A stretch of 64,000 nucleotides of DNA from Trichechus inunguis (lineage: Eukaryota). The translations under genes were made by a program, and so were the position numbers. This document shows, piece after piece, positions 18,721-59,560 of the stretch. Location: assembly GCA_046562895.1 (NCBI GenBank), contig CM102164.1:32651842-32715841 (forward strand). The letters are read 5' to 3'. The first letter of the stretch is position 1; every line of letters starts with the position of its first letter. The notes under the pieces were generated by a model. The model saw only the letters and a program-made list of their open reading frames with translations. It made no database searches and was not told where the DNA came from.

Positions 18721-18949
18721 TGCCGTAAAAGCTAGAAATGATTCTAAAACTAATGTACATTTTGCAAATTAGGATAAATAATGTTCTTTTTTGTGACTAT
18801 AACATGATTGTAATATCTTTTGTTTTTTTTAATAATGCCCAATTCTCCTACAATTTGCATGTAGAACAATGTTAAATTCACTGTCAGTTAGATTCACTGA
18901 GAGGAGAGTCCTTAAAAACTATGGCTTGAAATCTGTTTTTTTCTGTAGG

Positions 18950-19081
18950 ATGACTGTGGGAATCTTTGCAAATTGTACCTTCTGTTTGAAAGTCAAGTAC
19001 TTACCTCGACAGCAGAAGAAAAAGCTACAAACTGACATTAAGGAAAATGGTGGAAATTTTTCATTTTCATTACATCCCCAG
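18950..19081 (+). CDS. PARP4: PARP4 first coding exon (start codon; BRCT domain N-terminus): MTVGIFANCTFCLKVKYLPRQQKKKLQTDIKENGGNFSFSLHPQ
   Basis: Polypyrimidine tract plus AG (18947-18948) immediately before the ATG at 18950; donor GT at 19082. Matches human 'MVMGIFANCIFCLKVKYLPQQQKKKLQTDIKENGGKFSFSLNPQ' (from memory). Ends in phase 0. Confidence 0.85.
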
Positions 19082-20159
19082 GTATTTGCAAATTTTATAA
19101 GAACTGTATGACCAACATCCTGCATTATGGGAACGTGGGTCATGGTAAATAGAGTAAGCAGAGAAAATTTGGCAGCAGAAGAATGGCAGTGATTACAGGA
19201 GAGTCAGTGAAGGCAGAAAAAATTGTGACATTGCTAATGTGGAAGTTGGGCCAGGGACGGTCAGTAGAGGGAAGACAGCCTGGTCCTGTCTTCTCCCTGT
19301 TTCAGTCAGTTGTGCAATGATTCCAGATGCCTGTGGATCTGATATTATTAGAGCACAGCTGAAGATGTAAATAGAAATAATTTCAGGCTAACCAAAAATG
19401 TTGTCAAAGGAGAAAAGTCATAGCACATTTGCAAAAAGAATGCTGTAGTCTCTGGTTAAAATGTCAACTCTAGTGATACCTTTAAGTGTGGCTCATGGTG
19501 GATAGACACAAAAATATGCAGTGTGAACTGGTCTCTGGGGTATAACTTGTACTGTGTGTTTTGTTTGTTTAAGGCTAAAAGAAGCTACCTTCCATTTCTT
19601 GAAATAAACTGTAGGCCCTGATAGTTTAGATATAAAATTTCAAAGCTAGATGAATCTTGACAATAATTAAGGCTAACCTCTTTTTCAACCACATCATTGT
19701 AAGAAGTAAAAAATTGAAGTCCAGAGGTTCTTTACAGGTCCAATTAGGTCACGGGGCTACAAATGTAGGGCCTGACTCTCAGGGTTCTTCCCTCTATTGA
19801 TCAGGTTGACCTAGTCATCTGCTCCCCCCAGGACCCCCCAGCCCTGGGGCATGGTGATAGGTGAGTAGCGTTTGTCCTGTGAAGCAAGTTCAGCTCCACC
19901 TGGATGCTGGGTTTTTCCCTAACGTTTAGTAGTTATTATGTGAATACCAGAAATAGAATGTTTCTGTTTTCCTCCAGTTTAGGCAGAATTGTATATACTT
20001 CCCTCATATGGCCTCCCTTACTTACCTGTTCTTACTATTTCTGTGGATGGATGAATAATTCGTACCTGTTATAAATTCTCATTTAATATTTTGGTGGAGA
20101 ACGCCAACATGATCTCTAATTCTTAGAAACTCTCACATACTATGAGTGCAACCTTTTTG

Positions 20160-20730
20160 GAAGTTATTTTGTCAATGTATATAAACATTTGAAATGTGCC
20201 TACCAGCTGTTGTATATGAGAGAGCCCTACAAGTTATGATGAGGAATGATCTCCAAAATAAATTGTTGAGTAGAAAAGCAAATATAGAAGAGTGTGTATA
20301 GTATGCTGTCATTTGTGGGTTAAAAGTATTTATGTGTGTTTGCCTATGTATGGAATATCTATCTCTAGAAGGACACATGAGGAACAGGTTACAGCAGGTG
20401 CGTCTGGAGAGAGGAACTGGGAACAATGGTGGGGGAGAAGTTAATATATTAATATTATTGTTATTTTACTTTTTAGATATTCAACAGTAAGCATGTACTA
20501 ATTATTCAAAAATAAATTAATGAAATTACACATTAACAAATTAAAATAAATAAATAAATAATGAATACCCTTTGAACCTCCCATTCACTCCTATGGAAAT
20601 AATGGAACAAGTGCACAAAGAGTTATACATGCGGATGTTCATCACAGTATTGTTTACAATAGTGAAAATTTGGATACATCCTCTAGGATTGGCTAATCAA
20701 TTATGGTACACCCATACACTTTAAAAACAC
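20160..20730 (+). mobile_element. Old, rearranged L1 fragments in PARP4 intron (a 3'UTR-like piece 20160-20460 and an ORF2 C-terminal piece 20560-20730)
   Basis: 20560-20730 translates to '…MFITVLFTIVKIWIHPLG…QLWYTHTL', compare L1 '[11 protein letters not shown]…WYIHTMEY'. 20395-20440 resembles the post-ORF2 'gagggagaggagaagtgggaggg' segment. Confidence 0.4.
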
Positions 20731-20898
20731 ATGATTTTTCTTTTAACTTCTATATAGCTATAAATTATATTATTTATAAAAGTTTTAGAAATCAGAGAAA
20801 AATTACCACAAATTAACTTCAAACAAGACTTTTTAAGGGTGAAAGTTATTTAAACATGTTTTTACTAGTGCATAATGGACTGATTCTTTTATTCATAG

Positions 20899-21100
20899 TG
20901 CACGCATATAATCTTAGACAATGCTGATGTTCTGAGTCAGTATCAAATGAAATCTATCCAAGAGAAACATATCCATATTGTAAACCCAGATTTCATATGG
21001 AACTCTGTCAAAGAAAGGAGACTCTTGGATGTAAAGAATTACAATCTTAATAATTCATTGGAAATCTCACTACCTCCTGGTCAAAAGGAAAGCAGTTCTG
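20899..21100 (+). CDS. PARP4: PARP4 coding exon 2 (rest of BRCT): CTHIILDNADVLSQYQMKSIQEKHIHIVNPDFIWNSVKERRLLDVKNYNLNNSLEISLPPGQKESSS
   Basis: Acceptor AG 20897-20898, donor 'gtaagt' at 21101. Matches human 'CTHIILDNADVLSQYQLNSIQKNHVHIANPDFIWKSIREKRLLDVKNY…'. Ends in phase 1. Confidence 0.88.
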
Positions 21101-21670
21101 GTAAGTGTTTATTTCCCGTTAAGCACTTAATATGTTATAGGTGTACTGTGGAAAAATGAAATCCCACTACTCACACCAAATTTTAAGGATGAATTCAATT
21201 CTGTTACCTTCTGTTCCACTTCTGTCCAGACACCAGCTGCCCATGCAGCACTTCTTCCTCTGACCCTAACCACCTGGAGATAGGTCAGATCTTACAAGTT
21301 TCAAGGCATAGTCCTCCAGACTGCCAAGTCTGCCCAAGACCTCAGACGCCAGCCATAAGCTTGGGAGTTCCCATGACACCCTTACTTCTGACCTACTGGC
21401 CACGAATTCAGGGTTTTCTTACTACCCCCTCAGGATGCCAGCCATAAGCTCTGGGACCCCCTCCCCACTTCTGACCTGCTGGCTCCTACTACTTTCTTGG
21501 GTTCTATAATTCGCTAGAACGACTCATAGAACTCAGGAAAGTGCTAAACTTAATGATTACAGGTTTATTATAGCAAAAAGGATACAAGTGAAGAGACGTG
21601 TAGGGTAAGATCTGGGAGGGTTCCCAATGTGAAGCTTTCATGTCCCAAAAAGGGGTGTGCTACCTGAGTT

Positions 21671-21778
21671 CCCATGTGAATTGATGTCTGTCACCAGTCA
21701 GGAAGCCCCATGTGCATTGATGTCTGTCACCAGTCAGGAAGCCCCATGTGCATTGATGTCTGTCACCAACCAGGAAGC
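21671..21778. repeat. 36 bp unit x3 perfect or near-perfect tandem repeat ('cccatgtgcattgatgtctgtcaccagtcaggaagc')
   Basis: Direct reading of the sequence. It also shows up as a 12-aa x3 repeat in the spurious minus-strand ORF 21660-21869. Confidence 0.8.
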
Positions 21779-21966
21779 CCATGGAACTTTCATGTCCAGA
21801 GCATTTATTGGAGGTCTCATTACATAATTCAAATTCCAGCACCTCTCCCCTGAGGTAGGTTGATATCATGAGGTTGATATCGCATGGTAGGTCTTTCTGG
21901 CATAGTCAGCCCCCACCCAGCATGAGTCATAAACCCTTAGGTGTGGTCTGGAGTCCTCACAAAGAC

Positions 21967-22312: not shown

Positions 22313-23204
22313 TCTCACAAAGACACTTTAACCACTGGGGAAAGTCCAAGGTTTTAGAGGTTATCATCTCTCAGGAAGCAAGGACAAAGACCAAATTGGT
22401 CTTAAAGTTAACTCCACAAGGTGCTATAGTAAACATTTTGGGAAGATATTATAGACAAAGGATTGTCCAGAAGTTCTACAAAATTAATTAGGCTTCTTAT
22501 TACCTCAGAAAATAGGCAGCAAAAATAGTGAAGGACGGAAGACTATGTTAGCAATAGAAATTGATTCTCAGCATTCAGTCTAGTGTGGTCAGATTCAAAA
22601 TGACTGCAAAAACACTGGTCATCTCAGAAACCTCGAGGTGTAATTTTGACTGGGAGGAGAAAAAACCTTTGTGGTAAAAAATTATTACCATGACTTAGTG
22701 ACTATGGAAATTTTGCGACTAGCATTTGGTAGAGAAGTTCTTTCCAAAACATGATCTCTCCAAAAGCAACGTATCTCTTTTATAAACTCAGATTTTATTT
22801 TGAAATCTGGCCAAGAAGAAAGCTTTTCAACATAGAGAAATACGTTTCTCACAGGTTAGATCAAATGTAAGCAGTTCTGATAAATATTAAATTAGACACA
22901 TGATATATATTAGATATTATAATAAACATTTCAGTATGGTGAAGCCTTTTTAGACAAACACTGTCCAGAAATGCTGCTTCTGTCTTCATACTTTCTTGCA
23001 GTCTCAGTAAGTGGTAGCTTAAAGAGAAATAGGCAGGATGATAGACTCCTTTCACATTGAAAACATATTTTTCAACATCCAGAATCATGCAGTCAGATTC
23101 AGAATTACTACAAATATGTTGATAATCTTTGAAATCATGATTATTTGAAATCATAAATTAAAAGTAGAAAAAATCCTTACATTAAACAAGTTATTCCTCT
23201 ATAC

Positions 23205-26030
23205 CGTAATGCTGTGGAATGTATGAGGTATGAATCTAGGAAAATTGGAAATCATAAAAAATGAAATGGAACACATAAACATCGATATCCTAGGCATTAG
23301 TGAGCTGAAATGGACTGGTATTGGCCATTTTGAATCAGACAATGCTATGGTCTACTATGCCGGAAATGACAACTTGAAGAGGAATGGTATTGCATTCATT
23401 GTCAAAAAGAACTTTTCAAGTTCTATCCTGAAGTACAGTGCTGTCAGTGATAGGATAATATCCATATGCCTACAAGGAAGACCAGTTAATATGAGTATTA
23501 TTCAAATTCACTCACCAGCCACTAAAGCCAAAGATGAAGAAATTGAAGATTTTTACCAGCTTCTGCAGTCTGAAATTGATCAAACATACAATCAGGATGC
23601 ATTGATAATTACTGGTGATTGGAATGCGGAAGATGGAAACAAAGAAGGATCGGTAGCTGGAAAATATGGCCTTGGTGATAGAAACGATGCCGGAGATTGC
23701 TTGATAGAATTTTGCAAGACCAACGACTTCTTCATTGCAGATACCTTTTTTCACCAACATAAACGGCGACTGTACACGTAGACCTCAAGAGATGGAATAC
23801 ACAGGAATCAAATCGACTACATCTGTGGAGAAGATGGAAAAGCTCAATATCATCAGTCAGAGCAAGGCCAGGGGCCAACTGTGGAACAGATCATCAATTG
23901 CTCATATGCAAGTTCAAGTTGAAACTGAAGAAAATTAAAACAAGTCCATGAGAGCCAAAGTATGACCTCGAGTATATCGCACCTGAATTTAGAGACCATC
24001 TCAAGAATATATTTGATGCATTGAACACTAATGACCGAAGACTAGGTAAGTTGTGGAATGACATCAAGGACATCACACCTGAAGAAAGCAAGAGGTCATT
24101 AAAAAGACAGGAAAGAAGGAAAAGACCAAAATGGATATCAGAAGAGACTCTGAAACTTGCTTTTGAACTTCGAGTAGCTAAAGCAAAAGGAAGAAATGAT
24201 GAAGTAAAAGAACTGAACAGAAGACTTCAAAGGGTGGCTCGAGAAGACAAAGTAAAGTATTATAATGACATATGCAAAGAGCCAGAGATAGAAAACCAGA
24301 AGGGAAGAACATGCTCATCATTTCCCAAGCTGAAAGAACTGAAGAAAAAATTCAAGCCTCAAGTTGTAATAGTAAAGGATTCTATGGGGAAAATACTAAA
24401 CGATGCAGGAAGCATCAGAAGAAGATGGAAGGAATACACAGAGTCATTATACCAAAAAAAATTGATCAATGTTCAACCATTTCAAGAGGCAGCATATGAT
24501 CAGGAACCGATGGTACAGAAGGAAGAAGTCTAAGCTGCACTGAAAGCATTGATGAAAAACAAGGCTCCAGGAATTGATGGAATATTGAGATGTTTCAACA
24601 AACAGATGCAGCACTGGAAGTGCTCACTCATCTATGCCAAGAAATTTGGAAGACTGCTTGGCCAACAGACCGGAAGAGATTCATATTTATGCCTATTCCC
24701 AAGAAGGGTGATCCAACAGAATGCAGAAATTATCAAACAATATCATTAATATCACACCCAAGTAAAATTTTGCTGAAGATCATTCAAAAGCGGCTGCGGC
24801 AGTTTATAGACAGGGTACTGTCAGAAAGTAAGGCCAGATTCAGAAGAGGACGTGGTACTAGGGATATCACTGCTGATGTCAGATGGATCCTGGCTGAAAG
24901 CAGAGAATACCAGAAAGATGTTTATCTGTGTTTTATTGACTATGCAAAGGCATTCGACTGTGTGGATCATAACAATTATCGACAACATTGTGAAGAATGG
25001 GAATTCCAGACCACTTAATTGTGCTCATGAGGAACCTGTGCATAGATCAAGAGGCAGTTGTTCGAACAGAACAAGGATATACTGCGTGGTTTAAAGTCAG
25101 GAAAGGTGTGCGTCAGCGTTGTATTCTTTCACCATACTTATTCGATCTGTATGCTGAGCAAATCTGAGAAGCTGGACTCTATGAAGAACAGGGTGTCGGG
25201 ATTGGAGGAAGCATCATTAACAACCTGCGTTATGCAGATGACACAACCTTGCTTGCTGAAAGTGAAGAGGACTTGAAGCACTTACTGATGAAGATCAAAG
25301 ATCACAGCCTTCAGTAGGGATTATACCTCAACATAAAGAAAACAAAAATCCTTACAACTGGACCAATAAGCAACATCATGATAAATGGAGAAAAGATTGA
25401 AGTTGTCAAGGATTTCATTTTACTTGGATCCACAATCAACACCAATGGAAGCAGTGGTCAAGAAATCAAAAGACACATTGCATTGGTCAAATCTGCTGCA
25501 AAAGACCTCTTTAAAGTGTTGAAAAGCGAAGATGTCACGTTGAAGACTAAGGTGTGCCTGACCCAAGCCATGGTTATTTTCAATCGCCTCATATACATGG
25601 AAAAGCTGGACAATGAATAAGGAAGACCGAAGAGGAATTGAAGCCTTTGAATTGTGGTGTTGGCAGAGAATATTGAATATACCATGGACTGCCAAAAGAA
25701 TGAACAAATCTGTCTTGGGAGAAGTAAAGCCAGAGTGTTCCTTGGAAACAAGGAAGGTGAAACTACGTCTTACATACTTTGGACATGTTGTCAGGAGGGA
25801 TCAGTCCCTGGAGAAGGACAATCATGCTTGGTAAAGCACAGGGTCATGGAAAAAGAGGAAGACCCTCAAAGAGATGTATTGACATAGTGGCTGCAACAAT
25901 GGGCTCAAGCATAACAATGATTGTGAGCGTGGTGCAGGACCAGGCAGTGTTTCATTCTGCAGTACGTGGGGTCGCTATGAGTCAGAACTGACTCGACAGC
26001 ACCTAACAACAACAATAACAACATAATGCT
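23205..26030 (+). mobile_element. RTE/BovB-type LINE copy B (~2.8 kb, ORF disrupted)
   Basis: ORFs 23230-23781 (AP-endonuclease 'MNLGKLEIIKNEMEHINIDILGISELKWTG…ITGDWNAEDGNKEG'), 24590-25018 (RT '…ARFRRGRGTRDITADVRWILAESREYQKDVYLCFIDYAKAFDCVDHN'), 25378-25991 (C-terminal region). Tail '…gtcgctatgagtcagaactgactcgacagcacctaacaacaacaataacaaca'. Confidence 0.85.
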
Positions 26031-26387
26031 GTAGATAAGAAAAATATAAGATGGAAAGTCCAGCCTCACATAGGGGCCCTTGAGTTTCCCTTCTCTAAAC
26101 TAGAGCATCTGGTTTCTTTCCTTTGTGACATGGCACTCAGAACCTCATTCTGACCTTACAGTGTATGAAAAATGCATTTCATAATATGCTTACCATAATC
26201 TTCACAAGAGAAAAATGCCACTCAGAAATTTTATGTCTATCAATGAGTTTCAGATAATACAGATTACATTAAAATTTCCTTCATCTGCCTATTAAAATAG
26301 AATTATAACATGTTCTCTCCATTTACATTCCTTCCTCTTTTCTCATTTGTATTGCCTTTGAGTTGCCAATAACTGTAGCTAATTTAA

Positions 26388-26558
26388 GGAGCCCTGGTGG
26401 TGCAACTATTATGCACTCAGCTGCTAACTGAAAGGGAGGAAGACCTGGCAACCTGCTTCTGTAAGGATTACAGCCAAGAAAACCCTATGGAGCCATTCGA
26501 CTCTGTCATATTGGGTCGCTATGAGTCAGAATCGACTCTATGGCATCCAACAACAACA
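26388..26558 (+). mobile_element. AfroSINE with 15 bp target-site duplication
   Basis: 'ggagccctggtggtgcaactattatgcactcagctgctaactgaaaggg…gggtcgctatgagtcagaatcgactctatggcatccaacaacaaca'. TSD 'tagctaatttaagga' at 26373-26387 and 26559-26573. Confidence 0.85.
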
Positions 26559-26699: not shown

Positions 26700-26766
26700 A
26701 CGTGGAAACAGATGATCCGTCCCTGGTCAATTCCACAGAGAAGGAAAACATTGTGGAATTCGCTAA
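26700..26766 (+). CDS. PARP4: PARP4 coding exon 3 (acidic linker): (D)VETDDPSLVNSTEKENIVEFA…
   Basis: Acceptor AG 26698-26699, donor 'gtaacc' at 26767. Phase 1 in, phase 2 out, joining exons 2 and 4 without a frame break. Weaker similarity to the human acidic linker 'VKTEGLCPDSATEEEDTVELTEF', which is a fast-evolving segment. Confidence 0.7.
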
Positions 26767-27670: not shown

Positions 27671-27746
27671 GTTTTATACAGACAATGTTGAAATTCCTCA
27701 TTTTTCTCAAGAATTTGAAGTTGCAAAATATGACACCTTGGAAAAA
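27671..27746 (+). CDS. PARP4: PARP4 coding exon 4: KFYTDNVEIPHFSQEFEVAKYDTLEK
   Basis: Acceptor 'tttcag' ends at 27670, donor 'gtaaga' at 27747. Matches human '…NVEIPHLPQDFEVAKYNTLEK'. Confidence 0.85.
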
Positions 27747-28486: not shown

Positions 28487-28600
28487 ATTGAGACAGAGGG
28501 CAGGAAGGAAATTGTAGTGGTGGAAATGCAGTGCTTCCAGGAACACTGGGACTGTCCTTTTCTAATAACTGCATGTTTCCTCCTGGCTGATGGAATCAAG
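28487..28600 (+). CDS. PARP4: PARP4 coding exon 5: IETEGRKEIVVVEMQCFQEHWDCPFLITACFLLADGIK
   Basis: Acceptor 'ttttccag' ends at 28486, donor 'gtactg' at 28601. Matches human 'GMEGGQEAVVVELQCSRDSRDCPFLISSHFLLDDGME'. Confidence 0.85.
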
Positions 28601-31164: not shown

Positions 31165-31314
31165 ACTAGAAGACAATTCTCTGGAAAGAAAACTTCTGCA
31201 GATGCAAGTGAGTACTATGAAAACTATATTGAAGAGCTGAAGAAACAAGGATTTCTGCTAAGAGAAAATTTTACACCTGAAGCAACCCAATTAGCATCTG
31301 AAAAATTACAAGCA
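31165..31314 (+). CDS. PARP4: PARP4 coding exon 6: TRRQFSGKKTSADASEYYENYIEELKKQGFLLRENFTPEATQLASEKLQA
   Basis: Acceptor 'ttcacag' ends at 31164, donor 'gtaaga' at 31315. Near-identical to human 'TRRQFAIKKTSEDASEYFENYIEELKKQGFLLREHFTPEATQLASEQLQA'. Confidence 0.9.
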
Positions 31315-32664: not shown

Positions 32665-33535
32665 ATTTAAACTAAATAGACAATAGATAAGTGATAACTT
32701 TGGTGAAGGGTAAGGCAGTACACAATACTGGGGAAGCCAGCACAGTTTGTACAGGGAAAGGTCATGGAAGCTCCATAGACAATCCAAACTCCCTGAGGGA
32801 CTGAATTGCTGGGTGGAGGCCTGTGGGGACCATGGTCTCAGGGAACATCTAGCTCAATTGGCATAACACAGTTTATAAAGACAATGTTCTACATTCTACC
32901 TTGGTGAATAGCAGCTGGGGTCTTAAAAGCCTGTGAGCAGCCATCTAAGATACTCCACTGGTCTTACCTCTTCGGGAGCAATGGAGAATGAAGACAACAA
33001 GATACAAGGAAAAGATGAGTTCAAAGGACTAATGGACCACAACTACCATGGCCTCCACAAAACTGAGTCCAGTACAACTAGATAGAGCCTGGCTACCACC
33101 ACTGACTGTTCTGACCAGGATCACAATAGAGGGTTCTGGACAGAGCTGGAGAAAAATGTAGAACAAAATTCTTACTCACAAAAAGGACCAGATTTACTGT
33201 CCTGACAGAGACTGGAGAAACCCCGAGAGCATGGCCCTGGGACACCTTTTTAGCTCAGTAATGAAGTCACTCCTGAGGTTCACTGTTCAGCCAAAGATTA
33301 GACAGCCCCATAAAACAAAATGAGAATAATGGGGCACAACAGTCCAGGGACAAGGACTAGAAGGCAGGAGGGGACAGGAAAGCTGGTAATAGGGAACCCA
33401 AGGTTGAGAAGGGACAGTGTTGGCATGTCGTGGGGTTGTTAACCATTGTCATAAAACAAATATGTGTAGTAACTGTTTAATGAGAAACTATTTGTTCTGT
33501 AAACTTTCATCTAAACTACAATAAAAAAAAAAAGT
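32665..33535 (+). mobile_element. L1 3'UTR fragment (sense, poly-A at 33516-33530) inserted into L1-x
   Basis: Reverse complement of the 1740-2500-type 3'UTR sequence ('…ccatctaagatactccactggtc…gttaaccattgtcataaaacaaatatgtgt…') ending in A-run. Confidence 0.7.
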
Positions 33536-35436: not shown

Positions 35437-38400
35437 TACTTTATTCTTTAGGTGCTATTGTCAATGATAGTGTTTCCTTAATATCCTTTTTCTTTTTTTT
35501 TTTTTTATTGTACTTCAGTTGAAGGCTTACAGAACAAATAGTTTCTCATGAAACAGTAGTATGTATATTGTTTTATGACTTTGGTTAACAACCCCATGAC
35601 ATGTCAACCCTCTCCCTTCTCGGCGTTTTTTTCTTTGGTGAAAGTATACATAGCCAAAGAGACACCATTTCAAAAATTTCTACGTGCACAGTTTAGTGAC
35701 ATTGACTACGCTCTTTCAATTGTACTGCTATTCTCACTTTAGATGAAGGCTTACAGAACAAAATAGTTTCTCATTGAACAGTTAGTACACATGTTGCCCT
35801 ATGACAATGGTTAACAACCTCACAACACATCAACACTATCCTCCCTCAACCTTGGGTTCCCTATCACCAGCTTTCCTGTCCGCTTCTGCCTTCTGGCCCT
35901 TGTCCCTGGACTGCTGCGCCTCATTAGTCCCATTTGGTTTTATGGGGCTGTCGACTCCCCAGCTGAACGGTGAACCTCAAAAATGACTTCATGACTAAGC
36001 TAAAAGGGTTTCTGGGGGCCATACTCTCGGGGTTTCTCCAGTCTCCTTTAGGTCAGTAAATCTGGTCTTTCTTTTTTGTGAGTTAGAATTTTGTTCTACA
36101 TCCTTCTCCAGCTCTGTCCAGAACCCTCTGTTGTGATCCCGGTCAGAGCAGTCAGTGGTGGTAGCCGGGCACCATCTAGCTGTACTGGACTCAGTCTGGT
36201 GGAGGCCTTGGTAGCTGTGCTCCATTAGTCCTTTGGACTAATCTTTTCCTTGTATCCTATTCTCTTCATTCTCCCTTCCTCCCAAAGGGATGAGACTAGT
36301 GGAGTATCTTAGATGGCTGCTTACAGGCTTTTAAGACCCCAGCTGCTACTCACCAAGGTAGAGTGTAGAACATTGTCTTTATAAACTGTGTTATGCCAAT
36401 TGAGCTAGATGTTCCCCGAGACCATGGTCCCCACAGGCCTCCACCCAGCAATTCAGTCCCTCAGGGAGTTTGGATGTGTCTATGGAGCTTCCATGACCTT
36501 TCCCTGTACAAATTGTGCTGGCTTCCCCAGTATTGTGTACTGTCTCACCCTTCACCAAAGATACCACTTGTCTATTGCCTATTTAGTATTCCCCCCCACC
36601 CCTCCCATCCCTTGTAACCAACAAAGATTGTTACATTTTGTGTGTGAACATTTTCATGGGTTTTTACAGTAAAGGTCTCATACAATAGTTGTCCTTTTGT
36701 GATTGACTTATTTCACTCAGCCTAATGTCCGCCAGTTTCATCCATGTTATGAGATGCTTCCCAGATTCATCATTGTTCTTTATCGTTGCATAGTACTCCA
36801 TTGTGTGTATGTACCATAGTTTGTTTATCCATTCATCTGTTGATGGGCATCTAGGTTGTTTCTATCGTTTTGCTATTGTGAACAGGGCTGCCATGGACAT
36901 TGGTGTGCATATGTCTATTTGAGTGATGACTCTTATTTCTCTAGGGTATATTCCTAGGAGAGGGATTGCTGGATTGTATGGTATTTCTATTTCTAGCTTT
37001 CTGAGGAAGCGCCATATCATTTTCCAAAATGGTTGTATCATTTTGCATTCCCACCAGCAGTGCATAAGAGTTCCGATCTCCCCACAGCCCTGCCAACATT
37101 TGTTATTTCCAGTGTTTTTGATTCGTGCCAGTAATGCCGGGGTGAGATGGTATCTCATTGTGGTTTTAATTTGCATTTCTCTAATGGCTAGTGAATGCGA
37201 GCATTTCCTCATGTGTCTGTTGGCCATTCGAATGTCTTCTTTGGTGAAGTGTGTGTTCATTTCCTTTGCCCATTTTTTAATAGGATTATTTGTCTTTTTG
37301 TGGTAGGGCTGTTGGATTTTCTTGTAGATTATGGAGATTAGACCTTTGTCTGACTAGTACTGTCCAAAAATCTTTTTCCCAGTCTGTAGGTTCTCTTTTG
37401 ACTCTTTTGGTGAAGTCTTTTGAAGAGCATAGGTGTTTGATTTTTAGAAGATCCCAGTTATCTAGCTTATCTTCTGGGGTTTGTATGTTGATGGTTATGG
37501 TTTGTATCCTGTTAATGCCGTGTATTAAGGCCTGTAGTGTTGGTCCTATTTTTCCTTCTATGAACTTATATTTTTAGGCTTTATATTCAGGTCTTTGATC
37601 CATTTTGAATTGGTTTTTGTATACAGCGTGAGGTGTGGGTCCCGTTTCATTTTTTTGCAGATGGATATCCAGTTTTGCCACCACCTCCTTAGTATCCTTT
37701 TTCACTTGCTCGTTGCTGATATATAGAAACGTGACTTATTTTTTTGTGTTGACCTTGTTCGTTGCTACTTTGCTGAATTCGTTTGCTAGTTCTAATAACT
37801 TTCTTGTGAACTCTTTGGAGTTTTTTGTATGTAGAATCATGTCTGTGAAAAGGGATAGTTTTACTTTATTCTTCCCAATTTGGATACTTTTTCTTTTTCC
37901 CCCTTGCTTAATTTCCCTGGCTAAGATCCCAGAACAAGGTTGAATAGCGGTGGTGAGTGTGAACATCCCTGTCTTGCTCTTGATCTTAATGAGAAAGCTC
38001 TCAGTTTTTCTCCATTGAATATGATGTTAGCTGTAGGTTTTCCATAAATGCCCTTTATTATACTGAGAATTTCCCTTCTATTTTTATTATGAAAGACTGT
38101 TTAACTTTGTCAAATGCCTTTTCTGCATTGATTGATGATCATGTGGTTCTTTCTTTTCCTTTGTTTTGTTAATGTGGTATATTACATCGATTGATTTTCT
38201 AATGTTGAACCACCCTTGCATTCCTGGAATAAATCTCACTTGATCATGTTGTACAATCCTTTTAATATGTTTTTGGATGCAGTTTGCTAGTATTTTGTTG
38301 AGTATTTTTGCATCTTTACTCATTAGGGATATTGGTCTGTAGTTTTCCTGTGGTGTCTTTTTTTGGCTTTGGTATCAGGGTAATTCTTGCCTCTTAGAAT

Positions 38401-40042: not shown

Positions 40043-40212
40043 GTTTTAAACCCTGATGGCATAGTGGTTAAGAGCTATGGCTGCTAACCAAAATGTCAGC
40101 AGTTCGAATCCACCAGGTACTCCTTGGAAACCCTATGGGGCAGTTCTCTTCTGTTCTGTAGGGTCACTATGAGTTGGAATTGACTCGACAGCAACGGGTT
40201 TTTTTTTTAATC
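40043..40212 (+). mobile_element. AfroSINE inserted into L1 no.3, 12 bp target-site duplication
   Basis: 'ccctgatggcatagtggttaagagctatggctgctaaccaaaatgtcagcagttcgaatccacc…gggtcactatgagttggaattgactcgacagcaacggg'. TSD 'atctttgtggtt' at 40031-40042 and 40213-40224. Confidence 0.85.
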
Positions 40213-40413
40213 TTTGTGGTTACCATGAGGATTAATTACATTTAACATCTTATTTTTCTAACATCCTGATTTATATTGATACTAAACTTAACTTCAGTAA
40301 CATACAAAAACTCTATTATGTATGCTAATTCTCCTGACCCCTGTTTATATTATTGTTATCACCAATTACATCTTTATACCTTGACTACCCTATAATTTAG
40401 GATTAAATTTATT

Positions 40414-40502
40414 ATATATATATATATATGAGTTGGAATTGACTTGACAGCAATGGGTTTTTTGTTGTTTTTTCTTTTGACACACACACACACACACACA
40501 TA
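40414..40502. repeat. (TA)n and (CA)n microsatellites flanking a 47 bp AfroSINE tail fragment
   Basis: 'tatatatatatatatat' + 'gagttggaattgacttgacagcaatgggtttttt' + 'cacacacacacacacacaca'. Confidence 0.8.
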
Positions 40503-42329
40503 TATGCAGTTTTTATTTTCAAGTTTTTTTCTATGCTTTTGTCATTGTAAAGCATGAGGGATAGATCATTTGTATTTGCCAACCAAAAGTACCTTAAATC
40601 TGATCTTTATGCTTATTAAGAAATTTCCTTGAATGAAAAATATTTTTTATCCCTGTGTGTACAACTTTAAGTTGCTATCTCGTGTCCTTACCTTTCCTTC
40701 TGGAGGACTTCCTTTAATATTTTTTGTAGGGCTGGCCTGCTGGTAACAAATTCCCTCAGTTTTTGTTTATCTGTGAATGCCTTAATTTCTCCCTCATTTT
40801 TTGAATGACAGATTTGTTAGGTATAGTATTGGCTGCAAGTTCTTTTCTTTCAACACTTTAAATATGTCATCCCATTGCCTTCTTACCTGCATAGTTTCTG
40901 AAGAGATACTGGTACTTAATCTTGTTGAGGACCCTTTGTATGTAATACTTCACTTTTGTTGTGCTGCTCTCAAAATTTTCTCTTTATCCTTGGTTTGATT
41001 ATTATGTGCCTCAGTATTGTTCTTTTTGGATTTATCTTACTTGGCATTCATTGAGTTTCTTGGATGTATAAGTTTCTGTCCTTTGTCATATTTGGGAAGT
41101 TTTTAGCTATTATTTCTTCAAAAATTCTTCCTGTCCCTTTATCACTCTCTCCTCCTTCTGGGATTTCCATAATGCATGTATTATTCAGCTTGATGATGTC
41201 CCACAGATCCCTTAGGCTTTGTTCATTTGTCTTCACTCTTTCTTCTTTTTGCCCCTCGGACTGAACAATCTCATTTGTCCTGTCTTTGCATTCACTGATT
41301 CTCTCTTCTGCCGGTTTAAATCTACTGTTGAACCCTTCCAGAGAATTGTTCATTTATGTTATTGAACTTTTCAGCTCCAGTATTTCTATTTTTTTTTAAA
41401 TTTCTCTTTATTGAAATTCTTATTTTATTCTTGTGTCGTTTTTCTGACTTCCTTTACTTCTTTTTCCATATTTTCCTTTAGCTCTTTGAGCGTGCTTAAA
41501 ACTGTTGCTTTGAAGTCTTTGGTGAGTTATTCTGTTATCTGTTCTTCCTCAGGGACAGTTTCTGTTCCCTTATTTTTGTCTTTTGCATGGGTCATTCTTT
41601 CCTGCCTCTTTATATGCTTTGTGTTTGTCTGTTGTAATTGGAACATTAGGCTATTTTACTGTGTTAACTCTGGAAATTAAAATTTCCCCCTTCTCTAGAG
41701 TTTACTCTTCTTACTCTTTATTGTTGTTGTTATTATTATCTTTTAAGTTTATTGAAGGTTGTAGTTCTCTGCTTCCACTCCAGACTCCCCATCTAGGTGC
41801 AGTTGCTGTTGTCCCTTCCCTATTGGTCTCACTGTCCCGTGACACCGGCTGTCACTGTTTCACCTCTAAGTTTCCTAAGGGGGTTGCTGGCTGAGCCACT
41901 TCAGCACCAAACTGTGTGGCTTGTAGCAGTTGGTGTGGTTGCTTCCCCACCAGTTATTAGGCACACTAATCGTATTACTTTGGTACCAGATGCCTTCTTC
42001 AGAGATACTGGCCATGCCCCTTCAGCACCTGCCCCCTCTTTAGAGATTACCAGCTGTCTTTGATTGCTCACCACAGACCTACTCACTGTGAGGCCTGGCC
42101 TTATGACTCTGGCACTAGGCCCCTCACTCAGTAGCTGCAGCTGTCACAGACACACCACAGACTCCTTTTCCAGAAGCATCATCTGTACTACACCAACCTC
42201 AGAGTCCCACCCTGGAAGCAGCAACTGTTGCCAATTCATCACATGTCCTCACTATTCATGAACTCCAGACTACACTGTGCTCAGCTTATTGTTTCATCCT
42301 GGGACTCATGGGAACTCCAGCCCATTCTC

Positions 42330-42830
42330 TGCTTGCTAAGTTGCTCTGCACCAGGTCTGTCTGCCCAGGTGTTCTGCCCCTCATTATGCCCCTCATTCTT
42401 CTCCATTGTGGGCCTGACTGCACATACACTGCAGCCTGCACTGCACCCATGCACTGCTCTTTCCTAGGATGCACGGGAATGCCCACTTGCATTGTGCTCA
42501 CCAAGCTGCTCTGCCTCAAGTCCAGCTGTTCATGTGTCTTGGCCTGTGCTTCACTGTCCATGTGTCTCTGTCCCAGGCCCAATTGTTCATGTACTGCAGT
42601 CTGCGCTGCATGCACCAGGTTTCTCTTTCCCAGGACTTACCAGAACTCTAGCCTGGGTTGTGCTCACCAAGCCATTCTTTCCCAGGTCCGACTGTTCAGG
42701 TATCTTGGCCTGCACTGTGCAAACCTGGCTTTTCTGTGCCAGGGCCAATTGTTCATGTACTGTGGCCTGCACTGTGCCCTGGGTCACTGCTGGGTGACTG
42801 CCAGGTGGTTTTCAGGCTTCTCTCTGCTGC
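42330..42830 (-). repeat. L1 no.3 5'UTR monomer array (~165 bp units, about 3 copies, internally sub-repetitive)
   Basis: 'tgctcaccaag(c/t)…ccaattgttcatgtactg…' recurs at ~42493 and ~42660, with a diverged copy at ~42330. This produces the overlapping spurious ORFs at 42228-43385. Confidence 0.6.
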
Positions 42831-43769
42831 ACTAGTAGGGGCTGGAGGCACCCTCTCTGGTCTGCCCAGGAAAGCCACCCTTGGTTTAGGAGCCACAAGC
42901 CATCAGACCCCTTCTTGTGCCTCAGAGATTCGTGTGCCCGCCGTTGGTGTGGCTCAGCTGCCAGGCAGCTGTTGGGTGGCTTCCGGCCCTCCCTCCACCA
43001 CACTAGGAGGAGTTGGGTGGAGGCCCCTCAAACTGTCTGCCCCAGAGATCTGCTTTTGGCCTTGGATCTGGAGGTGCCCGAGTTCTGTGCTCTCACTGGC
43101 AGTGTAGGTCGGCTGGATAGGGCTACCTACACTGTCCACACCAGAGATTTGCTCCTGGTTTCAGAGCCCAGGTTTAAGGGGTCCCTTATCATGCGCCAGG
43201 AGCCATGTGCCCAATGTGAGTTGGTTGTCAGGCTGCTACCTGGGCATCCCTCTCCTGTACCAGGAAATGGAAGGGCTGGGAAAGTGGAAGAGCTGCTTCC
43301 TTGTTTTTATTCAATTTTCAGTTCCTTGCTGTTTTTCATTGTCCATGGTTTCAGACTTCTTACAGGGCTTTGTACTAGATTCTAGTTGCTTTTATTGTTG
43401 TTCTTGTAGAGAGGGTCTGGATTTTATATCTGTTCATTACACCATCTTTCTGGAAACCCTGAGTTAATACTTTTAGTAGAAATGTTTTCTCTATACAAAT
43501 AAAAAGCTAGTAGAAGAGAAGAGTAGGAGTTAAGAAAAGGAAAGGTGAACCGACAGGGAGGCATGGAGGCTGAGTGGAAAGTGAATTCCAGGATAACCCA
43601 CAAAGCCCACTGCCTATTTCAGCAACAAACCCTCACAGCTTTGCAAAGATTTATTATAATACAAGCCAGGACTCAGGGATCCTTAACCCTCACTTCTTTT
43701 TTTTTTTTTTAAATAATATTTTATTGTGCTTTTGGTGAAGGTTTACACAGCAATTTAGGTTAACTCTGA

Positions 43770-44462: not shown

Positions 44463-44600
44463 TTGCTTTTGGAGGAGGTAATAAATTCAGATACTCTGAG
44501 CCAAGAGGTGAGTGATTTGGTGGAGATGATTTGGGCAGAAACTCTGGGCCACCTGGAGCACACGCTTCTCAAGCCAGTGAACAAAATTAGTCTTAATGAT
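44463..44600 (+). CDS. PARP4: PARP4 coding exon 7: LLLEEVINSDTLSQEVSDLVEMIWAETLGHLEHTLLKPVNKISLND
   Basis: Acceptor 'ttgctccag' ends at 44462, donor 'gtaagt' at 44601. Near-identical to human 'LLLEEVMNSSTLSQEVSDLVEMIWAEALGHLEHMLLKPVNRISLND'. Confidence 0.9.
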
Positions 44601-45339
44601 GTAAGTCAATGTGTCCTTGAAACATAACCTCTAACATGACAAACCTGCTTCCTGATTCATTAGCTTAAAAAATAACACTTATATTTTAGTACTAGTCAAA
44701 CTGAGTTGATTGTTGACTATTCTGTCCTTTTACCCTGGAGAAAAAGAGCATAGAGAGCACTAAGGGGAAAATAAGCTTTCAAGAAAACTAGACATTCCTG
44801 TCTGTAAAATGCTCAGATACAACAGCTGATCAATGGTAGCTTTTTACTGCTTGCAAATTATGAGGCTTGATCCTTTAGGTCAAGAGGTTAGTAATAGACC
44901 TGAATAGACCTGAGGGATATGCATGGTCTTGATAATTAGTTAATGTCCAAACGTTAGCCTTTTTCATAGCTAACTACTTTTAGAGTCTTGTAACTTCTGA
45001 CTGTCTCAGGGAAAGGCAGGTATGCTTCCAACCCAACAGAAAATGCTCTTGCCTTCTTAATTATGTCTAATTGCAATAGAAAGAACAAATGAAAGAAACT
45101 ATTCCCAATGGTACGTCTTGTGCAACTGCACTGTCATATTAAAATAACACAGACAGTTTTCCTCTGTGGAATTCAACTAATTTACTTCCTGGAGAAAAAT
45201 GTTTCCTGGATTAAAGCCCATAAAGTACATGTGTAATTAGAAACATATTCTTGAGGTTTTTGTTCCTAGCTGAGTCTGGCATCTTTCTAAATTTCTTATA
45301 AGAAAAGCAAGTCTGCTAGTGTTTCATTAGCATTCCTCT

Positions 45340-45650
45340 CTCTATATGTATCTCTCTCTATCAATCATCTATCTATCGCTCTATCATCTATCTATGTCTA
45401 TATATAGCTAGGAGCACTGGTGACGCAGTGGTTAAGAGCTATGGCTGCTAACCAAAGGGTTGACTGTTCGAATCCACCAGCTGCTCCTTGGAAACCCTAT
45501 GGGGCAGTTCTACTCTGTCCTATAGGGTTGCTATGAGTTTGAATCGACTTGACAGCAATGGATTTGGTTTGGTTCTATATGTAGCTGTATCTATTATCCA
45601 TAGATAGATATCTATCTATACCTTTATCTACGTCCATATATGTGTAGGTA
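45340..45650. repeat. (TCTA/TATC)n-type microsatellite interrupted by an AfroSINE (45411-45575, + strand)
   Basis: 'tctatatgtatctctctctatcaatcatctatctatcgctctatcatctatctatg…' before and '…ctatatgtagctgtatctattatccatagatagatatctatctatacc' after. SINE 'ggagcactggtgacgcagtggttaagagctatggctgctaaccaaagggttgactgttcgaatccacc…'. Confidence 0.8.
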
Positions 45651-45884: not shown

Positions 45885-46058
45885 GTGAGCAAGGCAGAGG
45901 GCATTCTCCTTCTAGTAAAGGCAGCACTGGAAAATGGAGAAACGGCAGAACAATTGCAAAAGATGCTGACTGAATTCTACAGAGTAATACCTCACAAAGG
46001 TCCAACAACTGAAGAAGTTAACCTGAGACTATTATCTAAGAAAGAGGACCTCTGCCAG
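45885..46058 (+). CDS. PARP4: PARP4 coding exon 8 (PARP regulatory/helical domain): VSKAEGILLLVKAALENGETAEQLQKMLTEFYRVIPHKGPTTEEVNLRLLSKKEDLCQ
   Basis: Acceptor 'tatttaaag' ends at 45884, donor 'gtaaat' at 46059. Matches human 'VSKAEGILLLVKAALKNGETAEQLQKMMTEFYRLIPHKG…KADLCQ'. Confidence 0.9.
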
Positions 46059-49711: not shown

Positions 49712-49872
49712 CTAATAAGAGACATGGTGAATGTCTGTGAAAGTAATTTGTACAAACCCAACCCACCATCTCTTGCCAAATACCGAGCTTTGAGATGCAA
49801 AATTGAGCATGTTGAACAGAACACTGAAGAATTTTTCAGTGTTATGAAAGAGGTACTGCAGAATAATCACAG
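49712..49872 (+). CDS. PARP4: PARP4 coding exon 9: LIRDMVNVCESNLYKPNPPSLAKYRALRCKIEHVEQNTEEFFSVMKEVLQNNH(S)
   Basis: Acceptor 'ctatag' ends at 49711, donor 'gtaagc' at 49873. Ends in phase 2. Matches human 'LIRDMVNVCETNLSKPNPPSLAKYRALRCKIEHVEQNTEEFLRVRKEVLQNHHS'. Confidence 0.9.
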
Positions 49873-51166: not shown

Positions 51167-51304
51167 TAGAAGTCCAGTGAACATCTTGCAGATATATAGA
51201 GTTGGCAGAGTGAATGAAGCCACAGAATTTTTGAGCAAACTTGGCAACGTGAAATCCTTATTGCATGGGTCTCCCGCACGAAACATTGTAGGAATTCTAT
51301 CCCG
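51167..51304 (+). CDS. PARP4: PARP4 coding exon 10 (catalytic domain start, H-G-S motif): RSPVNILQIYRVGRVNEATEFLSKLGNVKSLLHGSPARNIVGILS(R)
   Basis: Acceptor 'ttgcag' ends at 51166, donor 'gtaaga' at 51305. Phase 2 in and out. Matches human 'KSPVDVLQIFRVGRVNETTEFLSKLGNVRPLLHGSPVQNIVGILCR'. Confidence 0.9.
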
Positions 51305-51496: not shown

Positions 51497-53480
51497 TTTA
51501 AAGACCAATTGTGGGAAGACCTCAAGGACATAATACATGAAGAAAGCAAAAGGTCATTAAAAAGACAGGAAAGAAAGAAAAGACCAAAATGGATGTCAGA
51601 AGAGACTCTGAAACTTGTTCTTGAACATAGTGAATGGAAGAAGTGATGAAGTAAAAGAGCTGAACAGAAGATTTCAAATGACAGCTTGAGAAGACAGAGT
51701 AAAATATTATAATGACATGTGTAAAGACCTGGAGTTAGAAAACCAAAAGGGAAGAACATGCTCGGCATTTCTCAAAGTGAAAGAATTGAAGAAAAATTCA
51801 AGCCTCAAGTTGCAATTTTGAAGGATATTATGGGAAAAATATTGAATGACACAGGAAGTATCAAAAGGAGATGGAAGGAATATACAGACTCAATGTACCA
51901 AAAAAAAATTGGTCAATGTTCAACCAATTCAGGAGGTTGCATATGATCAAGAACCAATGGTATTGAAGGAAGTAGTCCAAGCTGCACAGAAGGCATTGGT
52001 GAGAAATGAGGCTGCAGAAGTTGATGAAATACCAGTTGAGATGTTTCAACAAACAGATGCAGCACTGGAGGTGCTCACTCAGCTATGCTAAGAAATTTGG
52101 AAGACAGCTACCTGGCCAACCAACTGCAAGAGACCCATATTTGTACCCATTCCAAAGAAAGGTGGTCCAACAGAATGCGGAAATTATCTGACAATATCAT
52201 TAATATCACACACAAGTAAAATTTTGCTGAAGTGCATTCAAAAGTGGTTGCAGCAGTACATCTACAGGGAACTGTCAGAAATTCAAACTGGATTCAGACG
52301 AGGATGTGGAACAGGGGATATCATTGCTGATGTCAGATGGATCTTGGGTGAAAGCAGAGAATACCAGAAAGATGTTTACCTGTGTTTTATCGACTATCCA
52401 AAAGCATTCAACCGTGTGAATCATAACAAATTATGGATTACTTTGTGAAGAATGGGAATTCCAGAACACTTAATTGTGCTCGTGTGGAATCTATACATAG
52501 ACCAAGAGGCAGTTGTTCGAACAGAGCAAGGAGATACTGCATGGTTTAAAATAAAGAAAGACGTGAGTCAGGGTTGCATCTTTTCACCATACTTCTTCAA
52601 TCTCTATGCTGAGCAAATAATCCAAGAAGCTAGACTATATGAAGAAAAATGTGGCATCAGGATTGGTGGAAGAGTCATTAACAACCTGCAATATGCAGAT
52701 AACACAACCTTCCTTGTTGAAAGTGAAGAGGACTTGAAGCACTTACTGATGAAGATCAAAGACTACAGCCTTCAGTATGGATTACACCTCAACATAAAGA
52801 AAACAAATCCTCACATCTGGAACCAATAAGCAGCATCATGATAAAGGCAGAAAAGATTGAAGTTGTCAAGTATTTCATTTTACCTGGATCCACAATCAAT
52901 GTCCATGGAAGCAGTAAACAAGAAATCGAACAATGTATTGCATTGGTCAAATCTGCTGCAAAAGACCTCTTTAAAGTGTTAAAAAGCAAAGATATCACTT
53001 TGAGGACTAAGGTGTGCCTGACCCAAGCCATGGTGTTTTCAATACCCTCATTTGTATGTGAAAGCTGGACAATGAATAAGGAAGACAAAAGAATTGATGC
53101 CGTTGAATTATGATGTTGGCAAAGAATATTGAATATACCGTGGACTGCCAGAAAAAGGAGCAAGTCTGTCTTGGAAGAAGTACAGCTGGAGTGCTCCTTG
53201 GAAGTGAGGATGGTGAGACTTTTGTCTGATGTACTTTGGATATGTTATCAGAGGGACCAATCCCTGGAGAAGGACATCATGCTTGGTAAAGTAGAGGGTT
53301 GGCAAAAAAAAGGAAAGCCCTCAATGAGACGGATTGACACAGTGGCTGCAACAATGGGCTCAAACATAACAATGATTTAACAGGATGGTACAGGACCCAG
53401 CAGTGTTTCGATCTGTCGTATGTGGGGTTCCTATGAGTTGGTACCGACTTGATGGCACCTAACAACAACAGCAAATTTTT
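51497..53480 (+). mobile_element. 5'-truncated RTE/BovB LINE copy C (~2 kb) in PARP4 intron
   Basis: Starts inside the region equivalent to copy B ~24050. RT ORFs 52224-52829 ('…GFRRGCGTGDIIADVRWILGESREYQKDVYLCFIDYPKAFNRVNHN…') and C-terminus 52838-53380. Tail '…ggttcctatgagttggtaccgacttgatggcacctaacaacaaca'. Confidence 0.85.
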
Positions 53481-54640: not shown

Positions 54641-54835
54641 ACTGTGCTGGAAGATGAGCCCCCTAGATTGGAAGGCACTCCAAATACACAGTAGCTGCAA
54701 CAATGGACTCAAGCATACCAACAGTCACGAAGATGATGCAAGACCAGGCAATGTTTTGTTCTGTTGTATATGGGGTCGACGTGAGTTGGAGCCAACTCAG
54801 TGGCAACCAACAATAACACCTACAAATCAATAAGA
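54640..54835 (+). mobile_element. RTE head-to-tail deletion derivative (~195 bp): RTE 5'UTR segment joined directly to the RTE 3' tail
   Basis: 54640-54680 'gatactgtgctggaagatgagccccctagattggaaggcac' matches the RTE copy A 5' region at 11378-11420. 54685-54830 '…cagtagctgcaacaatggactcaagcataccaacagtcacgaagatgatgcaagaccaggcaatgttttgttctgttgtatatggggtcgacgtgagttggagccaactcagtggcaaccaacaataaca' matches the RTE 3' tail (cf. 25885-26020). Confidence 0.65.
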
Positions 54836-57506: not shown

Positions 57507-58780
57507 CAAATAGAAATACCATACGATCCAGCAATCCCACTCCTAGGAATATATCCTAGAGACATAAGAGCCATCACATGAATAGACATATGCACACCCA
57601 TGTTCATTGCAGTATTGTTCATAATAGCAAAAAGATGGAAACAACCTAAGTGCCCATCAACAGATGAATGAATAAACATATACACAATGGAATCCTACAC
57701 AACTATAAAAAACAATGATGAATCTGTGAAACATCTCACAATATGGATGAATCTGGAAGGTATTATGCTGAGTGAAATAAGTCAGTCACAAAAGGACAAA
57801 TATTGTATGAGACCACTACTATAAAAACTCATGAAAAGGTTTACACACAAAAATTAACAATCTTTGATGGTTATGAGGGAGAGGAGAAGTGGGAGGGAAA
57901 GTCACTAACTAGACAATAGATAGGTGGTAACTTTGGTAAAGGGTAAGACAGTACATAATACTGGGGAAGCCATGACAACTTGTCCAGGGAAGGTCATGGA
58001 AGCTCTATAGACACATCCAAACTCTCTGAGGGACCAAATTACTGGACTGAGGGCTATGCGGACCATGATCTTGGGGAACATCTAGCTCAGTTGGCATAAT
58101 GTAGTTTATAAAGAAAATGTTCTACATTGTACTTTGATGAGCAGTAGCGTCTGGGGTCTTAAAAGCCTGTGAGCAGCCATCTAAGATACTCCACTGGTCT
58201 CATCCTGTCTGGAGCAAGGGAGAATAAAGAAAACCAAAGACACAAAGGAAAGATTAGTCCAAAGGACTAATGGACCACAACTACCATGGCCTCCACCAGA
58301 CTGAGTCCAGCACAATTAGATGGTGCCCAGCTACCACGACCGACTGCCCTGACAGGGATCATAATAGAAGGTCCTGGACAGAGCTGGAGAAAAATGTAGA
58401 ACAAAATTCTAACTCACACACACACACAAAAGACCAGAATTGCTGGTCTGACAGAGACTGGAGAAACCCTGAGAGTATGGCCCCTGCCCACCCTTATAGC
58501 TCAGTAATGAAGTCACTCCTGAGGTTCACCCTTCAGCCAAAGTTTACGCAGGCCCATAAAGCAAAACGAGACTAAATGGGCACACCAGCCTAAGTGCAAG
58601 GATGAGAAGGCAGGAGGGGACAGGAAGCCTGGTAATGGAGAACCCAAGGATGAGAACGGGAGAGTATTGACATGTTGTGGGTTTGGCAACCAATGTCACA
58701 AAACAATACGTGTATTAATTGTTTAATGAGAAACTAGTTTGCTCTGCAAAACTTCATCTATAATAAAATTTTTTAAAAAA
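57507..58780 (+). mobile_element. 5'-truncated L1 (sense; ORF2 C-terminus plus 3'UTR) with ~11 bp target-site duplication
   Basis: The antisense ORF 57479-57685 (-) is the mirror of the L1 antisense ORF seen on + in L1 no.1. The 3'UTR is the reverse complement of the 1740-2500 type. A-rich end at 58765-58780. TSD 'aagtgatgt(c/t)c' at 57496-57506 and 58781-58791. Confidence 0.8.
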
Positions 58781-59464
58781 GTGATGTTCGTGGAATTAAC
58801 AGATTCAACTGGAGCAAAAGCACAGAGACAGGGTCAGGCATGAGCTGCGATATCATGAAGGAGCCATGTCAGGAGAGAATGGAGATGTGGGTGGAAAGCG
58901 AGGGAAGCTGGCATAATCACAGAAAACATTTTTAATAAAAATCGGCTTGATTTTCATCTTTTTTTTTTTTGCCGTACATTTTGCAAAATTAATTGTATTA
59001 AGTTCATAAGACAAAATTTAGAAACAGATGTTTATATAATAAAAAGCCGAAGTCTCCCTTCCCCATCTTCCCAGAGGTAACGTGGCCTACAAGTGTGATT
59101 GCAAAGAGTTCTTTGAATGCTAGAAGCCCAACAGGAATGTGTGTAAGTTCTTGAGCAAGGGAGAAATGCTGTCAGTGTTGGGCTTAAAGCATTGTTCTGC
59201 TGAGCACAGGGGTGGGGAGGGAGGGTTTGGGTTGAAGTAGGCAGAGTCCAGAGGCAGGAAAAATGGCTGGCAGTATCAAGACGGTGATGAGAAGCCAGCC
59301 GTAGCGTGCTACATTTTGATAGTATCTGGAACTCCATTTGTGTTAAAATGCATATTTCTTTTTCATTTCATGTGTTTTAAATAGCACCTGACTGTTGGAA
59401 TTACGAGGCTGTGATAAAAGATCATTTTTTCTAGTAAATCCTCATGGTGCTCTTTCTTTTTCAG

Positions 59465-59560
59465 AGGGCTGCTTTTACCCAAAGTGGTTGAAGATCACGG
59501 CGTGAAAAGAACAGACGTTGGCAATCTTGGGAGTGGGATATATTTCAGTGATTCCCTCCG
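59465..59560 (+). CDS. PARP4: PARP4 coding exon 11 (catalytic domain, NAD-binding G-x-G-I-Y-F region): GLLLPKVVEDHGVKRTDVGNLGSGIYFSDSL
   Basis: Acceptor 'ctttttcag' ends at 59464, donor 'gttagt' at 59561 (non-optimal +3 T). The unspliced read-through hits a stop within 6 codons. Matches human 'GLLLPKVVEDRGVQRTDVGNLGSGIYFSDSLS'. Confidence 0.85.

Follow-up and report, generated by a model that had tools for sequence, protein, structure and literature searches.

Eleven exons from the 5' part of a PARP4 (vault PARP) gene in a 64-kb stretch of DNA, most likely afrotherian

In the 64,000-nucleotide stretch of DNA analysed here in its entirety (contig CM102164.1, positions 32,651,842 to 32,715,841; hereafter the window), 11 coding exons on the + strand almost certainly make up the 5' part of a placental PARP4 (vault PARP) gene, the source of which is most likely an afrotherian. 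The predicted product of 482 residues aligns without a gap, residues 1-482 to residues 1-482, with full-length human PARP4 (Protein Data Bank (PDB) entries 11jf_P, 9bw6 and 9bw7; E = 7e-250, 832.6 bits, 78% identity), which bears out the claim of a preliminary description that the exons are collinear with human PARP4 from the initiator Met through the H-G-S motif. The crystal chain of the PARP4 catalytic domain (8sx1_A) matches residues 242-482 with E = 3.5e-132, and the chain of the PARP4 BRCT domain (PDB 9dev_A) matches the product with E = 3e-50; in a database of 5.8 billion proteins, all 36 matches named at the level of the gene are called PARP4 or poly [ADP-ribose] polymerase 4, an older name for it. 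Judged from sequence, the product belongs to the PARP4 orthologue group as far as the window goes, the protein's C-terminal two-thirds and synteny lying outside it.

Exon structure of the gene

Candidate exons were located by tblastn with human PARP4, a query identical over residues 1-482 to the PDB alignment sequence, and their boundaries were then read directly off the window sequence. The coding span opens with the ATG at 18950 and closes at the exon-11 donor at 59560; its 1448 nucleotides, free of stop codons and frameshifts, comprise 482 codons and 2 nucleotides of codon 483. All 11 donors are GT and all 10 internal acceptors are AG behind a pyrimidine tract; the ATG exon is also preceded by AG. 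Between the exons lie introns that measure 0.7-13 kb and are packed with retroposons of the L1, RTE and AfroSINE types.

Exon 1 (18949-19081) follows the AG at 18947-18948 and contains one base of 5' untranslated region (UTR) before the codons for residues 1-44, the first half of the BRCT domain; exon 2 (20899-21100) encodes residues 45-111 and the first base of codon 112, completing the BRCT domain and beginning a linker; and exon 3 (26700-26766, 67 nucleotides) encodes the acidic linker, residues 112-134 (DVETDDPSLVNSTEKENIVEFAK). The WGR-like domain begins in exon 4 (27671-27746, 76 nucleotides, residues 134-159), continues through exon 5 (28487-28600, 114 nucleotides, residues 160-197) and ends in exon 6 (31165-31314, 150 nucleotides, residues 198-247), where the N-terminal helix of the catalytic region starts. 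After an L1-filled intron of 13.1 kb (intron 6), exon 7 (44463-44600, 138 nucleotides, residues 248-293) encodes the N-terminal helix and the start of the helical domain (HD), which occupies exon 8 (45885-46058, 174 nucleotides, residues 294-351) and ends in exon 9 (49712-49872, 161 nucleotides, residues 352-405) at the start of the ADP-ribosyltransferase (ART) fold. Exon 10 (51167-51304, 138 nucleotides, residues 405-451) encodes the part of the ART fold with the H-G-S motif and the catalytic His438, and exon 11 (59465-59560, 96 nucleotides) encodes residues 451-482 and 2 nucleotides of codon 483, including the GIYFSD motif with the catalytic Tyr477, before the donor CG|GTTAGT. The donor phases of exons 1-11 are 0,1,2,0,0,0,0,0,2,2,2.

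These phases are exactly those given in the preliminary description, whose canonical AG/GT boundaries also recur at every acceptor and donor, and whose three quoted peptides are all encoded on the + strand at the places it gave. Its count of 12 coding exons has to be lowered to 11: the 11 phases that it lists stand for 11 donors, and an additional exon would not fit into the gapless alignment. Searches with the residues that follow GIYFS in four orthologues gave only chance-level matches (E >= 0.36) in 59561-64000; since no further exon is detectable there, the gene runs past the end of the window, as had been proposed.

Intron 2 contains, 1.8 kb downstream of exon 2 proper, a degraded and incomplete repeat of the 3' two-thirds of that exon (22754-22883): the segment 22754-22817 shares 77% identity with 20952-21015 (E = 2e-9), and a collinear piece at 22863-22883 matches the end of exon 2, with the donor GT changed to AT. 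This is likely an ancient partial exon duplication or pseudo-exon. The same intron holds 3.1 tandem copies of a 36-nucleotide unit, with 95% matches between them (21671-21780).

Transcript support and selection

An independent test of the junctions was provided by BLASTN of the DNA of the Logan contig SRR31920052_220 (L001) on the window. L001 encodes P0024, a 460-residue PARP4 fragment of another placental, and is intron-less up to intron 10. It aligns with the window in ten collinear blocks, whose ends lie 0-5 nucleotides from the exon boundaries for exons 1-4 and 6-10. The breaks agree with the exon model at seven of the nine introns spanned; the exceptions are introns 4 and 5, where the two junctions flanking exon 5 fall beyond the aligned blocks. 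Spliced alignment, which had been named as a check on the exon junctions, accordingly upholds most of them and does not reach these two; because the protein alignment to human PARP4 is already gapless, the junctions have no freedom to shift.

L001 retains intron 10 (1414-1519 of the contig), reading through ...CTGTCGCG|GTAAGAGG, which ends its open reading frame (ORF). As expected of a retained intron, the alignment continues past exon 10 into the intron, the retained sequence aligning at lower identity with the first ~115 nucleotides of intron 10 of the window.

The ratio of nonsynonymous to synonymous substitution (dN/dS), calculated by the Nei-Gojobori method between the window coding sequence and the L001 transcript over 449 codons, is 0.24 overall; it is 0.14 in the catalytic region, 0.24 in the WGR-like domain, 0.34 in the BRCT domain and 0.83 in the linker. 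Such values indicate purifying selection on the gene, the linker being close to neutral.

Conservation among orthologues

Identity to human PARP4 in exons 1-11 is 86, 70, 33, 72, 53, 88, 89, 83, 89, 78 and 94%, respectively, exon 5 being the least conserved of the exons that encode structured regions. The preliminary description had put every exon other than the linker exon at about 80-95% conserved; the range to human is in fact 53-94%, and exons 2, 4, 5 and 10 lie below the one proposed. It had also called the linker exon (exon 3) strongly diverged, which holds against human (33% identity) and fails against sloth and horse (76% and 67%, respectively, over the whole codons of the exon): the linker reads DVETDDPSLVNSTEKENIVEFAK in the window, DLETDDLSLDNSTEKENIVELTK in sloth and GVKADDLSLDNSTEKENVVEVTK in horse. 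Given these identities of the window to sloth and horse, human is the divergent sequence at this exon. Conservation of the linker exon across placentals other than primates, set against the divergence of human, is a small useful point.

Positive selection was considered as the cause of the divergent exons and rejected: in PARP4 such selection has been described only for human exon 30, which is outside the window (PMC4038475).

Over the 482 residues the window protein is 78.0% identical to human PARP4, 78.4% to lemur, 79.0% to horse and 79.5% to sloth, the last being the closest full-length orthologue retrieved; another sequence, P0026, is 85% identical over the more conserved 65%. The lineage of the window is therefore absent from the named sequences retrieved. 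In a neighbour-joining tree the window protein adjoins sloth, outside the sampled boreoeutherians.

Domains and predicted function

The encoded part of the protein consists of a BRCT domain (residues 1 to ~100), the acidic linker, the WGR-like domain, the helical domain and the first half of the ADP-ribosyltransferase fold. Pfam recognizes BRCT at residues 4-80 (52.5 bits) and the PARP catalytic domain at residues 390-481 (model positions 2-92 of 199; 53.2 bits), both above the cut-off, and PARP_reg at residues 258-356 with 24.5 bits, just below the cut-off of 26.8. The WGR-like family of PARP4 (PF26166, WGR-like_PARP4) is present in precomputed annotations of homologues, including P0024, and was not reported for the window product by the local Pfam scan; residues 135-241, which form this region, align gaplessly with human PARP4.

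Human PARP4 is a mono-ADP-ribosyltransferase with the H-Y-E triad H438, Y477 and E547, an open active site, an altered acceptor site in which T484 replaces K903 of PARP1, and a catalytic output that is lowered by the BRCT and WGR domains (Frigon and Pascal, PMC10711553). Its BRCT domain binds vault RNA, and mutation of K23/K24, K31 or F39 weakens the binding (PMC12212138, same authors). In the window product, H438 and Y477 occupy the human triad positions, and K23, K24, K31 and F39 are identical to human PARP4. By extrapolation from the human enzyme (PMC10711553, PMC12212138), the BRCT domain would bind vault RNA through an electropositive patch comprising K23, K24, K31 and F39; the BRCT and WGR domains would damp catalytic output; and the C-terminal part, encoded beyond the window, would dock the enzyme inside the vault particle via the MVP-interacting domain. 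Enzyme activity, RNA binding and vault association of the window product are all predicted in this way by analogy.

Codon 483 is split as CG|N at the donor of exon 11 (59559-59560), and residue 483 is predicted to be Arg, because CG|N encodes Arg whatever base the next exon supplies; no other feature of the coding sequence is unusual. Every other PARP4 sampled from placentals, birds, reptiles and frogs has Ser483 (SDSLSTS...), and the equivalent residue of PARP1 is also Ser in the alignment made in this analysis. The position adjoins T484, the acceptor-site equivalent of K903 of PARP1, which contributes to the restriction of PARP4 to mono-ADP-ribosylation. A lineage-specific basic residue here might alter the chemistry of the acceptor site or the catalytic output in this lineage, an idea that we regard as very improbable; the Arg codon, a single-base difference, may just as well be neutral, polymorphic or the product of a base-calling error.

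Retroposons and the origin of the DNA

An afrotherian origin, as proposed in the preliminary description, is very probable on the evidence of the repeats, not of the gene. A sequence, GAGTCGGAATCGACTCGA, which we take to be the AfroSINE/RTE core, occurs eight times in the window at up to 3 mismatches (0.02 expected), with differences typical of CpG decay; a full-text search of the literature found no paper that prints the core, so that the SINE assignment depends on this presumed consensus together with the published features of the tails and the partner LINEs. A profile built from four copies and searched over the window detected seven short interspersed elements (SINEs) at about 589-819, 26319-26545, 39988-40273, 45337-45634, 61094-61321 (- strand), 61478-61766 (- strand) and 62039-62356, together with six shorter matches that are the 3' ends of RTE-type long interspersed elements (LINEs). 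All seven SINEs have a tRNA-like head and an RTE-derived core, GGGTCGCTATGAGTCGGAATCGACTCGA. The copies start GCCCTGGTGGCGCAGTGGTTAAG...GGCAGTTCGAATCC, with motifs resembling an A box and a B box, and the tRNA-like head reads GCCCTGGTGGCGCAGTGGTTAAG...GTTCGAATCC; ARAGORN calls no tRNA in the window, as would be expected of decayed heads. The SINEs share with the RTE ends the core GGGTCGCTATGAGTC.GAA..GACTCGA.

Three RTE/BovB-type LINE fragments on the + strand, at 11750-13322, 23230-26010 and 52452-53460, contain ORFs for an endonuclease and a reverse transcriptase. ORFs encoding these two enzymes adjoin the LINE ends; the second and third fragments end in the shared core followed by (CAA)n. 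Tails of (CAA)n terminate five of the six RTE 3' ends and the SINE at 26319-26545, and GGTTT-type tails (...GACGGCAACGGGTTTGGTTT) terminate four of the seven SINEs (near 45630, 61100, 61480 and 62350). These tails match those given in Table 2 of PMC6007223 for elephant AFROSINE and for RTE1_LA and hyrax RTE1_Pca: the elephant AFROSINE families have (GGTTT)n or (GGTTTT)n tails, and RTE1_LA, RTE1_Pca and AFROSINE2 have (CAA)n tails, whereas cow BovB has (CTGAA)n. AfroSINEs have been described as specific to Afrotheria (PMC11292518). The near-equal distance of the window protein from human, lemur, horse and sloth fits an afrotherian placement but does not prove it.

Alternative explanations

Several observations weigh against the assignment to an afrotherian PARP4 gene. 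Only about 28% of the PARP4 coding sequence is in the window, E547 and the VIT, vWA and MVP-interacting domains being encoded beyond it; no flanking gene is present for synteny, and the upstream 19 kb (1-18948), almost all of it L1 and RTE repeats, yielded neither a non-coding first exon nor a promoter or CpG island. The L001 transcript contig aligns only with the interior of exon 5 (28517-28582) and does not include exon 11, and the named PARP4 sequences retrieved for comparison include no afrotherian.

It is conceivable, though unlikely, that the gene is PARP4 and the source a placental other than an afrotherian: the taxon is called from repeats recognized by a presumed core, the protein tree has no named afrotherian to anchor it, and horse possesses structurally similar low-copy elements, SINE2-1_EC and RTE-1_EC, with (CAA)n tails. 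An equid source can be dismissed, however, because the window protein is only 79% identical to PARP4 of the Przewalski horse, and the protein branches beside sloth, outside the boreoeutherians sampled. The number of elements in 64 kb (7 SINEs and 6 RTE tails) is similar in density to the approximately 4-5 AfroSINE and 4 RTE1 elements estimated from elephant copy numbers, and the table of PMC6007223 lists GGTTT-type tails only for elephant AFROSINE families and, for cow BovB, (CTGAA)n rather than (CAA)n.

It is very unlikely that the exons belong to an unprocessed duplicate or a pseudogene copy of PARP4 instead of the functional orthologue. Such a copy would be compatible with the presence of only the 5' part of the gene, with the failure to find a promoter or CpG island upstream, with the lack of a flanking gene for synteny, and with Arg at codon 483 in place of the Ser of the other orthologues sampled, but it is opposed by the absence of any stop codon or frameshift in 1448 nucleotides, by the canonical form of all splice sites, by the low dN/dS both overall and in the catalytic region, and by the conservation of the experimentally important residues. 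PARP4 is apparently intact over the 5' part represented here, to judge by these sequence features; intactness of the whole gene is a matter outside the reach of the window. Derivation of the exons from another paralogue with BRCT-WGR-CAT architecture is dismissed, since the PARP1, PARP2 and PARP3 chains, although detectable homologues over residues ~260-480, score 36-48 bits (PARP1 and PARP2, the best, about 46-48 bits, E about 1e-11) where PARP4 reaches 832.6 bits, all 482 residues align with PARP4 gaplessly, and all 36 gene-level names are those of PARP4; a best match to a different paralogue, by which the preliminary description could have been refuted, was not found.

Other features of the window

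The PARP4 promoter is either outside the window or CpG-poor, because 1-18948 has no CpG island or recognizable non-coding exon 1 and is almost entirely L1 and RTE. No 500-nucleotide window meets the criteria for a CpG island, the most CpG-rich stretch (9001-9500) being the 5' end of an L1, and the N-terminal extension of the horse prediction has no match upstream of the ATG exon. At ~17070-18400, 0.55-1.9 kb upstream of the ATG exon, lies a degenerate purine-rich tandem array, with G and A on the + strand (GC skew +0.38) and about 9 units of 130-177 nucleotides that are 60-80% alike; the array was missed by TRF, and it yields a spurious low-complexity ORF of 176 residues on the minus strand.

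A nearly full-length L1 occupies ~2300-9500 on the - strand. Its ORF1 (6885-7592, 235 residues) matches Transposase_22; its ORF2 is broken into pieces at 4215-4907 (reverse transcriptase), 3027-4181 and 2369-2746; and its 5' region contains an internal duplication of ~270 nucleotides (8667-8932 and 8934-9214). A second long L1 on the - strand (36597-41246), interrupted by the AfroSINE at 39988-40273, makes up much of the 13-kb intron 6. Adjoining it is a GC-rich segment (42200-43400, GC 0.49) that is stop-poor and contains three overlapping ORFs of 149-175 residues with no Pfam match, and that may be the 5' UTR of this L1. An interspersed repeat of about 165 nucleotides is present on both strands in six copies that are 73-79% alike (1765-1931, 9535-9700, 33028-33192, 36061-36229, 58266-58418 and 63126-63284). 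No second gene is apparent in the window, where 18 of the 26 ORFs of at least 120 residues derive from L1 or RTE and the rest have no Pfam match, and no non-coding RNA was detected by Rfam at gathering thresholds or by ARAGORN.

Comparison with known PARP4 and PARP1 enzymes

PARP4 is already well described, with structures solved (PDB 11jf, 9bw6 and 9bw7 at full length, 8sx1 and 8sx2 for the catalytic domain and 9dev for the BRCT domain) and orthologues routinely annotated in mammalian genomes. The value of the present analysis lies in a reliable annotation of the gene's 5' third, with 11 exons, 482 residues, conserved key residues and purifying selection; beyond correct annotation its significance is small, this being routine annotation and not discovery.

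Residues 1-482 of human PARP4 correspond one to one to those of the window product, with 78% identity, no insertion or deletion and the same order of domains. The two differ by 106 substitutions, which cluster in exon 3 (the linker, with 33% identity) and in exon 5 (WGR-like domain, 53%). Human PARP4 has Cys450 where the window product has Ser450, as do horse, lemur and P0026, and it has Ser483 where the window is inferred to encode Arg. The PARP4 proteins of the sloth Choloepus didactylus (P0023), Equus przewalskii (P0021) and Eulemur rufifrons (P0022) are 78-79.5% identical to the window product over the 482 residues and 57-76% identical in the linker exon. PARP1, with its BRCT-WGR-CAT architecture, resembles PARP4 in its set of domains and in possessing the H-Y-E triad, and is homologous over the HD and the ART fold (PMC10711553), but its sequence match to the window product is very weak (about 48 bits). 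In human PARP4, unlike PARP1, the reaction is confined to mono-ADP-ribosylation, the active site is open and nucleic acid does not activate the enzyme (PMC10711553).

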